Below, piece by piece: positions 27,267 to 50,168 of a stretch of 64,000 bases of DNA. Position 1 is the first letter of the stretch. Every line of letters begins with the position of its first letter. Below the pieces are notes generated by a model. It was not told the DNA's origin and did not search any database. It worked only from the letters and a program-made list of their open reading frames with translations. A program made the translations under genes and the position numbers. The stretch covers positions 64,001 through 128,000 of the IMG/VR virus record IMGVR_UViG_3300010400_000001, one strand, 5' to 3'. Source of the DNA: a virus.

Positions 27267-27749
27267 ATGCTCCACGGTAACGGGCTTGGTCGAGGCGGCG
27301 GCGGAGGCGGTCACGGTGGCGGTGGTCACGGTGGAGGCGGCGGTCACCACGGCGGTGGCGGAGGCGGGCATCATGGCGGTGGCGGTCACCACGGCGGCCA
27401 TCGCGGTGGACGCGGGCGCGGCTTCGGTCCGACTGTGGTCGTTCAAGATGGCGGCGGATGGTGGGGTCCGGGCTGGTACGCCGATCCGCTCGTCGTCGAG
27501 CGGACGTGCGCGGTCGTCGACACGGAGGGTGTGTGCATCTGTCAGACGCTCAATCCGGACGGCACGTGCGCTCGGCCGCTCGTCGGCTGGGTTGGCGGTC
27601 GTCCCATCTACGGCATTGGAGAGGAAACGCTCTCGGCATCGAGCGGAGCGACGAGCTGGATCGCGGGAGGCCTGCTCGTTGGCCTCGCGATTGGCGTCTA
27701 TGCCCTGGATAAAAAGGGCCCTGGCGGCTCCAGGCGCGCCTCAGCTTGA
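27267..27749 (+). CDS. Gly/His-rich protein with C-terminal TM anchor
   Basis: (GGGGH)n repeats, Cys cluster, IYGIG, then TM plus KK. Confidence 0.7.
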   Translation: MLHGNGLGRGGGGGGHGGGGHGGGGGHHGGGGGGHHGGGGHHGGHRGGRGRGFGPTVVVQDGGGWWGPGWYADPLVVERTCAVVDTEGVCICQTLNPDGTCARPLVGWVGGRPIYGIGEETLSASSGATSWIAGGLLVGLAIGVYALDKKGPGGSRRASA

Positions 27750-27772
27750 GTTAGACCGGATCCCCTTGTAGA

Positions 27773-28357
27773 GTGAGGGCTGCTGGGCGCTTCCCGACGC
27801 CAGGCATCGGGAAAGTTGTGCGCCAGCTGTCGAACCAGCCCCCATCGACCCTGTCGGGTTTCCGCGGACACCCGGACACGCTCCGGGCCATGGTTCGGGC
27901 CGTTCACGGTCAGCGAGGCGAGCAGAGCATGCTCGTGAAATCGGTGGCCGAGCACATTGTGCAGAAGGTGCAGCCGAAGGATTACCTCGGAGAGATCTTG
28001 GCGGTGAGGTACTGGGTGACCGAGCACGTCAGGTACCTGAACGATCCGCTGCACGTCGAGGTCGTGAAGGATCCGCAACGCATCGTCGAAGAGATCGATG
28101 CACGCGGCCAAGCGGCGGAAGACTGCGACGGCATCGCGCTCCTCATCGGATGCCTCTGCCTTCTCATTGGCCGCGTGTGCGAGTTCGTCGTCGTCGGTTT
28201 CGGCGAGCCCGGGAGCTACAGCCACGTCTTCGTACGCGTAAAGGAACCCCGGAGCGGGAAATGGATCGTGTGCGATCCGGTTGCGGGCTCTGACGAGCGC
28301 GGCATGCTCGATCGCGTGACGACTTTTTACACGAAGAGTCTCGACGAGGCGGCGTAA
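27773..28357 (+). CDS. Transglutaminase-like (papain-fold) cysteine protease; candidate maturation protease
   Basis: VRYLNDP, EDCDG (Cys), YSHVF (His), WIVCDPV (Asp) triad. Confidence 0.8.
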   Translation: MRAAGRFPTPGIGKVVRQLSNQPPSTLSGFRGHPDTLRAMVRAVHGQRGEQSMLVKSVAEHIVQKVQPKDYLGEILAVRYWVTEHVRYLNDPLHVEVVKDPQRIVEEIDARGQAAEDCDGIALLIGCLCLLIGRVCEFVVVGFGEPGSYSHVFVRVKEPRSGKWIVCDPVAGSDERGMLDRVTTFYTKSLDEAA

Positions 28358-46768: not shown

Positions 46769-46771
46769 CCC

Positions 46772-47371
46772 ATGGATCTCTTCGAGCGCCTCCGTCGTGA
46801 CGCCAGGAAAATCCCCTGGGGCGCGGCGCTGTCGCTCATGACCGAAAGTCTCCATGAGCGGAAGGACGCTGCCGGCGCCGTCCTCGAGCAGCTTCGCGAG
46901 TGGGGGACGCATCTCACGAAGAACGCTCTTCTGAAGTGGACCGTGAGCATCGCGACGCCGCGAGCCTGCGAGTCCCCCGACGTCAGCAGCGGAAGACCGC
47001 GGCGGTGTCACAACCACGCGATCGTGACGTGCGACGTGTGCGGCCGGCCCTGCTGCCTCGCGCACAGCCGAGTCGACTTCATGGGCGACGGGATCTGCGA
47101 GGTCTGCATCGGCGAGGCGAAGGCGCGGACCCGCGGCGAGGCGGCGAAGCCTTCGGGGATGACTGTCGCCGAGGCCTTCCGCGTTCTGAAGCTCAAGCAA
47201 ACGGCAGACTTTGCCGAAGTGAAGAAGCGCTACCGAAAGCTCGTGTTCGATCACAGTGCGGATAGGCCACAGAGCTCGAAGAGGCGCGCCACGAACACGG
47301 AGAAGTTGAAAGAGATCAATCGCGCCTTCAAGGTGCTGCAGGATCACTTCCAGAAGGCGGAGGCGGCGTAG
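46772..47371 (+). CDS. Zn-finger plus J-domain (DnaJ-like) protein lacking the HPD motif
   Basis: CHNH...CDVCGRPCCLAH...CEVC, then EAFRVLKL...EVKKRYRKLVFDHSAD...LKEINRAFKVL. Confidence 0.75.
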   Translation: MDLFERLRRDARKIPWGAALSLMTESLHERKDAAGAVLEQLREWGTHLTKNALLKWTVSIATPRACESPDVSSGRPRRCHNHAIVTCDVCGRPCCLAHSRVDFMGDGICEVCIGEAKARTRGEAAKPSGMTVAEAFRVLKLKQTADFAEVKKRYRKLVFDHSADRPQSSKRRATNTEKLKEINRAFKVLQDHFQKAEAA

Positions 47372-50168
47372 TGGCGCTCTACAACGTCAAAGTCCAGGTC
47401 GAGTACACCGCTCAGGTAGCGGTCGACGACGTGGACTCGGCGGAGGAGGCCATGGCGCTTGCCGAGGCACGCGCGAAAGCGCTGATTCATGATGCGTTCG
47501 AGAACCCGGACATGGGGCTCGGAGCCGTCGGCAAGGCAGAGGCGCGCTCGGCCGTCTGCGTGAGTGGGTGGTGAGATGCCGGCCGCGAACAAGAAGAACC
47601 TCCTCGAGTTTCTGCGAATAAACGAAGTCGATGCGGCTGCGATCGCTGCGGCGATCAAGGCGGCGAGAGAGGACAGGGCAGAGCCCGAGGTCGCCGTCGA
47701 CGACGCGCTCGAGGTAGCGAACAAGATCCTGAAGGGACACGGCATCGAAGCGCTGCGGTCCGAGCAATACCTCGTCGATCACTACTACCGAGACATCGTC
47801 GCCCTCTACGTGAACATGGGCGACACGTACGAGACGACGCTGCTCTACGAGACGGACAAGGATCGATTCCTCGTGACCTCATGGGGCGATTGGGTCGAGC
47901 GAAACGAACGAAAGTACGGGATCACATGAGCTACCGCGGCGTCGGCGCGGGCCCTGGTCCCGTCGAAAAGTACAAGGTCGACGCTCCGTTTCCGTGGGGA
48001 GACGACACGGAGATCACGCTTCCGATCCAGGAACTCGTAAACGATGCCTGGTCTGCTGTCACTCCGCGAATCAACGAGCTCGAAGCGAAGCTCATTGAGG
48101 ACATGGAAAACGAAGCGTCGCTCTACGCTCCTCGGATCGTAAAGCAGGTTATGGACAGCGTCGTGACGCCCGAGATGAATCGCCAGATGGAAGTGGCGTT
48201 CGCCGAGCTCGACATGATGGAGACGGACGCACTGAAGGCGCTCATCGCCGTCGGCGCTTCGATGGTTCTCGCCGTGGGCCTCGCTGCCTGGTGGGTGAAG
48301 AAAGGGTAAGCCATGTCAGCTTGGAGCCGATTGCGAGCCTGGAACAGGAATTATCGACCCGAATTGGCGGCTGTCGTGGAGACCGTGCGAGACGGATTTC
48401 TGGTCTCTGTGCGGGACGTAAAAGGGGGCCACGTGGAGGACATTGTCGGTGTGCATCGCGCTGCTGTCGCAACGGGTCGCACCGTGGACACGGCTCTGGG
48501 CAGAGCACTGGATATCGCTGAGGAGGAGCTCGGGCAGTAAATGTCGCGCCGCGGACCATTGTTTTTTGAGATCCCAGTCGAGCTCACGTTCACCGTGTCT
48601 GTGCGTGTGCCGGTTGGTGAGGATTTCGAAAGCGCATGGATGGACGTGCCAGAGGGGATGACCCCGCGGCTGACTCAGGCCGACGAGCGGCGGCTTCGCG
48701 CCGAGGCTGAGGGCGTTGCTTGGGACTACTTGGAACGAAAGATTGATGTCGGTGGAGGCGAGTCGGTGGCGGCACAGACGAAAGAGTGGGAACTCGATCG
48801 CGGTGGACGCGCCGGAGTGCAGCCAAGGAGACGTGGGCGCTAATGCGAGGCAGCGGATTAGGAGCAGGCCCGGGCGACACGATTAGCTACCGCGTAGATC
48901 TTCCGCTCCCCTGGGGCGCGAACACCGAGGTGACGCTACCGATGCAGGCCCTGGTCGACGACGCGTGGGCGGCAATGGAGCCGTCGGCGACGGCGGCCAT
49001 CAACCGCGGCGCAGCGCTCGTCGCCGTCTCCTTCGCGCTTGCGATCGCCGTCGCGGCGGTCTGGATCAAGAAGGGCTAGCCCGATGGATCACCGTCGTCT
49101 CTGGCGCCTCGTCGTCGATATCTACGAGCCCGGAAACACGACCGCGTACCCGGTACTCCGCCACGTTTTTTACGGAAGGGATCGGGACGAGGCGAACGGC
49201 ACCCTGGAGGCGCACATGGGAACTGATGAGTTTCTAAGGGGTTGCATCGAAAAAGAACGCTGGAACGGCCTCGAGTGCTACGCCGTTGCAACCTGGCTTG
49301 CCCCTGGGCAGGCGATCGACGAAGATTGACGAGGGATATGTCCCAGCAATCTTCCGGCACCTACCCGAGCGGCGCGTATTGGGACGAAGGTCTCAAGCGC
49401 TACGTCGCGCCAGGCGACGAGGGATGGGACGCGGAGCGCTTCGGCGCGCTCGTCGGAAACTCGAGCGAAGCATACCTCGCAGAGCGGGACACGCTTCCCT
49501 GCGGTCCACCGAACGGAGAGTAACTCGATGTCGTATTGGATGGTTCCTGATGCGGACTACCGCGAGCTCGCGGTCGCAACTCCTGGTTGGCAGAACGCCC
49601 CGGTACCCGGATGGGGAATCAATCCGCTCCGCGCAGGGCCCGCGCGGGTAGGAGTCGGGCTCAGCGGCGGTATCTCGTGCGAGGACGATTTCCTTCCGCA
49701 TTGGGCACCGCTCGGTCGCTGCGGCGAGTGCGGCGACGATTACCTCTGCGGGCTCGGCGACGTGCCGGGCGACAAATACAACGAGACGAGCTACGGCGTC
49801 GTTGCTCTGTCGGGCGCCGGCGGGATCATGCTCGGGCTTCTCTTCGGATACTCGTGGTGGGGTCTCCGGAAGAGAACGGCATAGTGATCGCACACGTACA
49901 GTACCCGTCTCTTCACGGGGACGTTCCGGCACGGATGGCGATCGTCACCTGTCCGGAGTGTTCGTTTCTGAAGAACGGTGACTGCGTCGTGTGCATCGAC
50001 GGGGGCGATCATCCAGCCTGCAGCGGCTGCTCGGACGGGCAAGTCGTCTGGTACCGGCGTCCGATGTTCGTGTCGATCACGACTGCAGTGGTCGTCAGCA
50101 TTCTGGCGGGCATCGTCGTGCACCAGGTGGAGAAGCGCTCGACGCTGCTTCGGCGGCTGAGGTCGTAG
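47371..50168 (+). other. Run of small genes (47371-47574, 47576-47929, 47926-48309, 48313-48540, 48541-48843, 48843-49079, 49084-49329, 49338-49523, 49528-49884, 49884-50168)
   Basis: Tightly coupled ORFs; 47926 and 48843 are paralogues; several have a C-terminal TM. Confidence 0.65.

Follow-up and report, generated by a model that had tools for sequence, protein, structure and literature searches.

The adenovirus protease is described in PMC4246237 as cleaving at (M/I/L)XGX|G and (M/I/L)XGG|X sites, with IVGL|G in pVI, in seven substrates that include core proteins. In bacteriophage phiKZ an S/A-X-E motif is reported at several sites within propeptides, with SPN3US alike (PMC9026906, PMC10052503), and in T4 a 10-residue N-terminal leader is described as targeting internal proteins to the head before being removed (PMC9026906). 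LapG, a transglutaminase-like protease with a Cys-His-Asp triad, is reported to cut between Ala108 and Ala109, which are followed by Gly, freeing its substrate from an anchor (PMC3032545). These systems are compared here with positions 27267–49884 (the block) of a 64,000-nucleotide stretch of viral DNA (the window), bases 64001–128000 of IMG/VR record IMGVR_UViG_3300010400_000001, whose initial annotation noted an x-x-G-[LIVM]-G motif shared by about 20 putative virion proteins next to a putative Cys protease and proposed an adenovirus-like maturation code, with a virion sorting signal as the alternative.

The source is a single virus record of 136,226 bp with 63% G+C, classed with direct terminal repeats, and its 123-bp direct terminal overlap indicates that the genome is complete. 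Coordinates are in window numbering unless marked genome, and the genome under study is denoted G000. Genes were called with a self-trained codon model, and a truncated Arg-rich open reading frame (ORF) was restored to 37382–39889, giving 236 proteins in total: 38 (7224 amino acids) in the block and 198 (34272 amino acids) in the rest of the genome.

The block is a co-oriented gene module of this 136-kb bacterial virus and encodes a candidate shell protein, an Arg-rich core-like protein, and approximately 20 to 25 tail-anchored membrane proteins. All 18 pentapeptides listed in the initial annotation (IYGIG, FAGLG, VSGIG, FSGLG, LEGLG, FGGLG, MAGLG, LAGLG, VAGLG, YRGLG, YQGLG, VHGLG, MYGLG, FQGLG, LHGLG, YTGVG, YRGVG, and LCGLG) are present in the translations. 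The core of the motif, G-[LIVM]-G, occurs at 51 sites in 24 of the 38 block proteins, against 19.3 ± 4.3 (maximum 31) in 500 within-protein residue shuffles (z 7.3), whereas the other 198 proteins carry 47 sites where 60.2 ± 7.2 are expected. The longer form hydrophobic-x-G-[LIVM]-G is observed 25 times in the block (5.5 ± 2.3 expected) and 14 times in the rest (16.5 expected), and in an unbiased tripeptide scan GLG (30 observed, 6.4 expected, z 9.3) is second only to RRR. The enrichment over the other genes of the genome also exceeds what Gly-richness would give. Gly makes up 10.7% of residues in the block and 8.6% elsewhere, and GGG is likewise enriched (29 vs 8.9); nevertheless, G-[LIVM]-G stands to other G-x-G (x being any residue but Gly) as 51:59 among the block proteins and as 47:160 among those outside it (Fisher odds ratio 2.9, p 2e-5), by which general Gly-richness is ruled out as the cause, and GLG occurs 30 times to nine for GAG although Ala is commoner than Leu. 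The DNA under the 51 sites comprises 28 distinct 9-mers, with all four Gly codons and 10 middle codons in use, which rules out a DNA-level repeat; the motif is a protein-level signal.

The residue two places before the first Gly is hydrophobic at 47% of sites in the window and at 61% in a relative designated G005, against a background of approximately 29%; a small residue precedes this hydrophobic position, and the downstream order is A/G/E/D, D/Y, P/F. Four places before the first Gly, Gln is found at six of 46 sites, level with Ala and Gly and among the commonest residues there. A subclass, G-[LMVI]-G-[EA]-Y-F, occurs six times with 0 expected. With respect to placement, the first Gly lies at residue 8 or earlier at eight of the 51 sites, compared with 2.19 expected if sites were uniform (Poisson P 0.002) and one of 47 in the rest of the genome, while eight sites lie within 25 residues before a predicted C-terminal transmembrane (TM) segment, at spacings that range from 0 to approximately 22 residues, five lie within TM segments, and 30 lie elsewhere. 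The claim that the motif is typically N-terminal or pre-anchor thus holds for 16 of the 51 sites and approximately 14 of the 24 motif proteins, and does not describe most sites. By a strict hydropathy threshold 19 of 39 proteins are tail-anchored, and several further proteins were judged by eye to end in a weaker hydrophobic stretch with basic residues after it. Mis-called starts were considered as a source of the N-terminal sites and rejected: the starts abut or overlap the preceding stop, Shine-Dalgarno-like sequences are present, and public gene calls agree. Outside the block and the window, a 98-residue tail-anchored protein (genome 30868–31164) begins M-Y-G-L-A, a near-miss of the N-terminal motif.

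Relatives were found via the candidate shell protein, namely seven IMG/VR loci (60–93% identity, contigs of 62–140 kb) and eight loci in metagenome-assembled genomes (36–74%). Gene order is conserved among related loci, and the motif is in excess in 10 of 10 related loci tested (z 3.1–7.8). In G005, the most distant complete relative, whose candidate capsid is 60% identical, the syntenic block contains 49 sites where 13.3 ± 3.7 are expected, and elsewhere in that genome there are 45 against 51.8. For the 37 non-TM sites with at least three orthologues each, the motif columns are 0.61 identical compared with 0.46 for their flanks (Wilcoxon p 0.002), and G-hydrophobic-G is retained in 122 of 226 orthologue cells. 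The motif persists while its position turns over, as is usual for short linear motifs. Specific to the module, the short linear motif hydrophobic-x-G-[LIVM]-G is conserved across a large family of uncultivated viruses.

The protein encoded at 27773–28357 had been described as transglutaminase-like with Cys, His, and Asp, and this description is borne out; the protein stands at the head of the motif-rich block both in G000 and in the 53%-identical relative G005. Cys118, His151, and Asp168 are invariant in 29 sequences (45–79% identity) and in seven syntenic orthologues, and the AlphaFold2 model (predicted local distance difference test, pLDDT, 86) places the Cys at the start of helix 118–131 and the His and Asp on the strands that follow (151–157 and 164–167). 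Against the protein alone, PF01841 (Transglut_core) scores E 0.0092 and 16.7 bits, below the 23-bit cut-off; at least 1076 homologues exist in public data, however, and 82 of the 120 listed carry PF01841. Foldseek returned, at a probability of 1.00, the transglutaminase-like putative Cys proteases 3isr and 3kd4, PNGase 2f4o, and LapG 4u65, with further structural matches to TgpA, PeiP and PeiW, a CPR protease, the phage psiM2 Pei, and true transglutaminases (4xz7, TglA); E values are 3e-5 to 5e-5 for 3isr and 3kd4, 2.6e-3 for 4u65_E, 3.7e-2 for 4fgo, and 2e-2 to 5e-2 for Pei. The profile of the protein gave chance-level matches only among PDB sequences (E 0.39 or worse), and similarity to LapG is undetectable at the sequence level, with no DUF920 match listed in the Pfam scan and no PDB sequence match. 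Homologues and the predicted structure together place the enzyme in the transglutaminase-like superfamily. It is present in 10 of 10 related records searched and lies directly upstream of the motif-rich genes in both G000 and G005, and at one related locus (L008) the motif is in excess downstream of the enzyme (z 2.1) and not upstream (z −0.7). The enzyme itself lacks a signal peptide, a TM segment, and any domain for wall binding.

When all six frames of the entire 136-kb genome were searched, neither adenain (Peptidase_C5, PF00770) nor Ulp1-type proteases (Peptidase_C48, PF02902) were matched at E <= 0.1, and the likeness to adenovirus is therefore one of analogy only. What stands of the proposed likeness is the shape of the motif, the hydrophobic residue at the position equivalent to P4, and an Arg-rich core-like protein with seven sites; a homologous enzyme does not. 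A predicted complex of the enzyme (residues 25–194, 29-row alignment) with the motif-dense segment of the core-like protein (81 residues, 8-row alignment) scored 0.01 and 0.00 against a mark of 0.32, values that, having no controls, speak neither for nor against an interaction.

The features of the block are as follows.

27267..27749, plus strand: Gly/His-rich tail-anchored protein of 160 amino acids, with the motif at residues 6 and 116 and a TM segment at 129–147, 13 residues after the second site; no Pfam family
27773..28357, plus strand: transglutaminase-fold Cys-His-Asp protein of approximately 180–194 amino acids, exact start uncertain; candidate processing enzyme
28357..33260, plus strand: first run of nine small or medium proteins, mostly with a C-terminal TM segment and basic tail, seven of the nine with the motif (from sites, TM prediction, and orthologues); members, all on the plus strand, 28357–29073, 29080–29472, 29512–29781, 29781–30152, 30160–31008, 31018–31662, 31659–32012, 32012–32899, and 32916–33260
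33261..33815, plus strand: conserved soluble protein of 184 amino acids, no motif and no TM segment; orthologues in seven of seven loci at 37–65% identity
33812..36926, plus strand: 637-residue tail-anchored protein (motif at residue 15), 49-residue TM peptide, and 352-residue protein beginning M-S-Y-Q-G-L-G
36923..37300, plus strand: tail-anchored protein of 125 amino acids in which a G-L-G stands right where the TM anchor begins; G-L-G kept in four of five orthologues
37382..39889, plus strand: Arg-rich ORF of 835 amino acids, core or scaffold candidate from composition, motif sites, and alignment
40065..40868, plus strand: candidate capsid or shell protein of 267 amino acids, the most conserved of the block (60–93% identity in seven viral loci), one motif at residue 24
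40963..42865, plus strand: two conserved proteins of 328 and 301 amino acids, no motif and no TM segment; possible shell components, with orthologues in seven of seven loci at 37–74% identity
43017..46768, plus strand: second run of tail-anchored proteins, 43017–43778, 43792–44055, 44056–44871, 44868–45065, 45062–45286, 45320–46282, 46285–46548, and 46562–46768
46772..47371, plus strand: DnaJ-type (J-domain) protein lacking the motif, its N-terminal half Cys-rich (PF00226, E 2.5e-8; NCBIfam DnaJ models match the J-domain region only)
47371..49884, plus strand: small proteins, including 49528–49884 (two sites) and the tail-anchored paralogue pair 47926–48309 and 48843–49079

The Arg-rich ORF, whose true start is probably an internal Met near 37505, contains 32% Arg and 11% Lys in residues 61–520, followed by two hydrophobic segments and then by a conserved C-terminal domain with seven motif sites, among them G-[LMV]-G-E-Y-F repeats. 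In eight aligned C-terminal domains G70, G72, G96, G98, E99, F101, G105, G107, E108, Y109, and F110 are invariant, and G-x-G-E-Y-F is repeated three to six times in this domain, which adjoins the candidate capsid gene. The domain has 184 representatives in public data (E <= 0.001), and the 150 listed contain 5.42 sites per 260 amino acids compared with 1.26 after shuffling, with EYF as the dominant following context (144 occurrences). The codon model had skipped the Arg-rich part, and public representatives of the C-terminal domain are in approximately half of cases no longer than approximately 300 amino acids, for which the same skipping by gene callers is perhaps the cause.

The candidate capsid has at least 658 homologues in public data, with no Pfam domain among the 120 listed. 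Its AlphaFold2 model (pLDDT 66) is a beta-sandwich that is weakly jelly-roll-like, for which Foldseek found nothing at E <= 0.001; the best structural match, itself weak, is chain 6oj0_T of Sulfolobus polyhedral virus 1 (Z 5.4, root mean square deviation 4.7, 134 residues aligned), which is tied with tumour necrosis factor-like and carbohydrate-binding sandwiches. The 184-residue protein matches no Pfam, PHROG, or NCBIfam family, and the 328- and 301-residue proteins have no family matches.

Among the proteins of the first run, two or three carry peptidoglycan-binding domains: PG_binding_1 in 31659–32012 (E 2e-8) and, below the cut-off, in 30160–31008 (E 3e-4), with a weak PG_binding_3 match in 31018–31662. 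N-terminal motifs recur in several families. The 352-residue family starts with M/V-[ST]-Y-x-G-L-G in five of seven public gene calls, 43792–44055 begins M-Y-G-L-G, and 46285–46548, a paralogue of the core C-terminal region with G-x-G-E-Y-F repeats, begins M-Y-T-G-V-G. In the paralogue pair 47926–48309 and 48843–49079 an N-terminal motif is followed by A-G-P-G, and the orthologues of this pair often have Pro or Ala in place of the first Gly but retain [VM]-G-A-G-P. The J-domain protein may recruit host Hsp70 for the assembly of many membrane proteins.

The genome encodes DnaB, RuvC, ThyX, a NUDIX protein, a ComM-like ATPase, glycosyltransferases, and, as its only otherwise recognised lysin, a protein combining Amidase_2 and PG_binding domains; Shine-Dalgarno-like leaders precede its genes. 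This gene set, including the lysin and the leaders, points to a peptidoglycan-bearing bacterium as host, and the host is probably a bacterium. The eight related contigs in metagenome-assembled genomes were binned with Pirellulales (two), Phycisphaeraceae, Planctomycetota, Pseudomonadota, Pseudomonadales, Deltaproteobacteria, and Acidobacteriota, which gives a weak hint of Planctomycetota, weak because viral contigs are not binned reliably. In all six frames of the entire genome there was no match to the terminase families PF03354 and PF03237 (TerL_ATPase, Terminase_6N; other terminase and portal families were not searched), to the HK97-type Phage_capsid (PF05065), or to FtsK_SpoIIIE (PF01580). 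A Walker-A scan found three canonical proteins only (ComM-like, DnaC-like, and DnaB), and since all are of replication type there is no packaging ATPase candidate among them. Of 20 proteins searched against PHROGs, 10 key ones of the block had no match and the remainder had little, with no head or packaging match among them, the sole exception being a weak 'virion structural protein' match on a protein of the fibre region. NCBIfam searches returned J-domain matches only, blastn of 6 kb of the block against a phage collection gave no match, and protein-atlas searches with the 844- and 328-residue proteins returned unnamed viral clusters only. No tRNA genes were found in the window. Literature searches, which did not cover supplements, returned no description of the virus group or of any transglutaminase-like enzyme in membrane-containing phages.

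Elsewhere in the genome, a family of fibre-like paralogues (window 50168–51733; outside the window, genome 45594–46691, 49369–50412, and 52234–53445) has a common N-terminus of approximately 45 residues, after which come Gly-x-Thr repeats of collagen type (Pfam Collagen, E 1.5e-31), and one neighbour has a GDSL lipase domain. A C-terminal ending G-T-R-F-M is common to small paralogues at window 15507–16025, whose product has no Pfam family, and at genome 34641–36496, outside the window. A protein of 1249 amino acids, unusually large for an integrase, combines a phage-integrase catalytic domain with an N-terminal SAM-like domain (genome 13588–17337, outside the window; locus L021), and the N-terminus of a 602-residue ORF on the minus strand (61204–63012) resembles that of a TnpB/IS605 OrfB-type protein.

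The reading favoured here, which is tentative and somewhat short of probable, is that the transglutaminase-fold enzyme reads the motif as a code for processing and targeting, in a manner resembling that of adenain without membership in its family. It is suggested by the occurrence of one motif in disordered parts of two dozen unrelated proteins, which is the pattern of a multi-substrate maturation protease, and LapG provides a precedent for specific proteolysis between small residues by a transglutaminase-fold Cys-His-Asp enzyme. Also in its favour are the enrichment of the motif and its restriction to the module, its recurrence in relatives, the hydrophobic P4-like position, the N-terminal placement, and the invariant triad, fold, and genomic position of the enzyme. 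The motif would be a recognition site for proteolytic processing during particle assembly, and the reader would be the conserved Cys118-His151-Asp168 protein at the head of the module. Cutting at or adjoining G-[LIVM]-G would trim very short N-terminal leaders, would free ectodomains from their C-terminal anchors, and, in the Arg-rich protein encoded just upstream of the candidate capsid gene, would reduce the motif-dense C-terminal domain to short peptides. The motif segments may first direct the proteins, which are presumably virion components, to the particle, much as T4 internal proteins are delivered by a 10-residue capsid targeting sequence that is then removed.

Several observations weigh against this reading. 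The depletion of the motif outside the module is weak and non-significant (z −1.8 in G000 and −1.0 in G005), other glycines of the same proteins are equally conserved (0.63 vs 0.61), and conservation in place applies to only about half of the sites. The eight sites at two to eight residues from the N-terminus would leave almost no upstream residues for a protease that reads P4, and the substitution of Pro or Ala for the first Gly in orthologues of two N-terminal families is unlike a strict Gly at P2. Transglutaminase-fold enzymes also include cell-wall isopeptidases, amidases, and cross-linkers, so the enzyme may be unrelated to the motif. That no other protease was found in the approximately 70 proteins scanned is in favour of the reading, but another may exist among the approximately 160 of the 236 proteins outside those family scans. 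Finally, the G-x-G-E-Y-F units are repeated and invariant in a conserved domain over deep divergence, which a repeated binding element would fit at least as well.

Such a binding element is the basis of the main rival, which we consider possible although on the unlikely side: the motif would be an uncleaved docking or assembly signal through which many different membrane and core proteins attach to a single hub (for example a scaffold, the shell protein at its inner face, or the 184-residue protein) and are recruited into the particle, comparable to the cargo-loading peptides of the encapsulin type. Besides the invariance of the G-x-G-E-Y-F repeats beside the candidate capsid gene and the dominance of EYF among the listed representatives, the position of the motif at extreme N-termini is consistent with a free end that plugs into a pocket, at sites where little is left for a protease to hold, and the first 10 residues of T4 IPIII are reported to suffice for capsid targeting (PMC9026906). 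On the other hand, 24 different proteins would have to bind one site through a very short, Gly-dominated motif that offers little binding energy, the positional turnover is quick, and sites that abut TM anchors are awkward for contact with a shell.

An unlikely reading, compatible both with docking and with the structural explanation discussed below, concerns the enzyme only, which could be, instead of a processing protease, a particle-associated cell-wall hydrolase that serves entry or exit and resembles the transglutaminase-fold pseudomurein endoisopeptidases known from viruses of methanogens, with any cutting at the motif left to another enzyme. A particle-borne wall hydrolase is suggested by the fold relatives of the enzyme, which include PeiP, PeiW, and the phage psiM2 Pei as well as PNGase and cross-linkers, by the peptidoglycan-binding tail-anchored proteins, two or three in number, encoded 2–4 kb downstream, and by the recognition of only one other lysin (Amidase_2); to this extent it also counts against assigning the motif to this enzyme. 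Against it, the enzyme lacks a signal peptide, a TM segment, and a wall-binding domain, and the putative Cys proteases 3isr and 3kd4 are structurally closer than Pei.

It is improbable that the motif has no dedicated reader and represents a structural habit of Gly/Ala-rich segments close to the membrane that are disordered or pack as helices, having spread as small genes and repeat units were duplicated. The five sites within TM segments, the paralogy of several carriers (47926 with 48843; 46285 with the core C-terminal region), the Gly-richness of the block, and its excess of GGG are in keeping with such an origin. These observations do not account for a middle residue that is specifically Leu, Ile, Val, or Met, as seen in GLG against GAG and in the Fisher comparison with other G-x-G, nor for the flanking preferences at −2, +3, and +4, the enrichment at N-termini, and the retention of the motif in otherwise unrelated proteins across relatives of 36–93% identity.

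A transamidase acting where the motif marks it is very improbable; such an enzyme would cleave pre-anchor sites and, through a thioester, couple the freed end to an amine (such as an exposed N-terminal Gly or a Lys) in a sortase-like or cross-linking reaction that stitches the particle together. It is improbable, since 30 of the 51 sites are neither N-terminal nor pre-anchor, a pattern of acceptor residues was not identified, and most microbial members of the transglutaminase superfamily are regarded as hydrolases, despite the eight sites with the layout of a sorting signal (motif, TM helix, basic tail), the eight other proteins that present the motif at their N-terminus, the true transglutaminases in the fold family (4xz7, TglA), and the frequency of Gln four places before the first Gly.

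If the motif is indeed a processing or targeting code, the particle proteome and the mature protein ends of a widespread virus group, for which no cultured member was found and which has no recognisable structural genes, could be predicted from sequence only, a transglutaminase-fold enzyme would join the short list of virion maturation proteases, and a Gly-based code would be convergent between bacterial and animal viruses. A broader proposal, which is rather doubtful, is that the 115–140-kb genomes belong to a lineage, so far undescribed, of bacterial viruses that contain a membrane, possibly infect Planctomycetota, and lack every recognised capsid and packaging hallmark, and that this lineage has built an adenovirus-like maturation independently, with a transglutaminase-fold Cys protease, a hydrophobic-x-G-[LIVM]|G code in approximately two dozen tail-anchored proteins, and a giant Arg-rich core polyprotein whose motif-dense C-terminal scaffold is cut into pieces beside the shell protein.

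The prohead proteases of T4 (gp21), phiKZ (gp175), and SPN3US (gp245) are serine proteases related to the herpesvirus assemblin. Their systems resemble the block in that one short motif is common to many head proteins, but their motifs end in Glu (L/I-X-E, S/A-X-E) whereas the motif enriched here is G-[LIVM]-G, and they belong to tailed phages with a terminase and an HK97-fold capsid, which were not found here, and use enzymes of another class. In the C-terminal sorting signals of LPXTG/sortase, PEP-CTERM/exosortase, and GlyGly-CTERM/rhombosortase, a short motif, a TM helix, and a basic tail stand at the C-terminus, and eight sites of the block show this same order at the extreme C-terminus; the motif here also occurs at N-termini and in the middle of proteins, however, and is not at a fixed position before the TM segment (eight of 51 within 25 residues). 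No sorting enzyme of these families was seen, although no search was aimed at them. LapG, of the bacterial transglutaminase-like cysteine proteinases (BTLCP), shares the fold class of the 27773–28357 protein, with a Cys-His-Asp triad and a structural match, and differs in being periplasmic and calcium-dependent with one substrate type.

The comparison with the adenovirus protease (adenain, AVP) must allow for the candidate enzyme here having a transglutaminase (papain-like) fold without an adenain or Ulp1 homologue in the genome, for a bacterial host, for carriers that are mostly tail-anchored membrane proteins, and for cleavage that is putative. The likeness lies, as a pattern only, in a code of four to five residues in which P4 is hydrophobic and both P2 and P1' are Gly, to the extent that IVGL|G as described for adenovirus is literally of the form found in the block. 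It lies further in the many particle proteins described as carrying sites near their ends, including Arg-rich core proteins, and in a virus-encoded Cys enzyme, where the particle proteins of the present virus are presumptive. By analogy, the module would function like the maturation systems of adenovirus, T4, and phiKZ by means of an enzyme unrelated to theirs.

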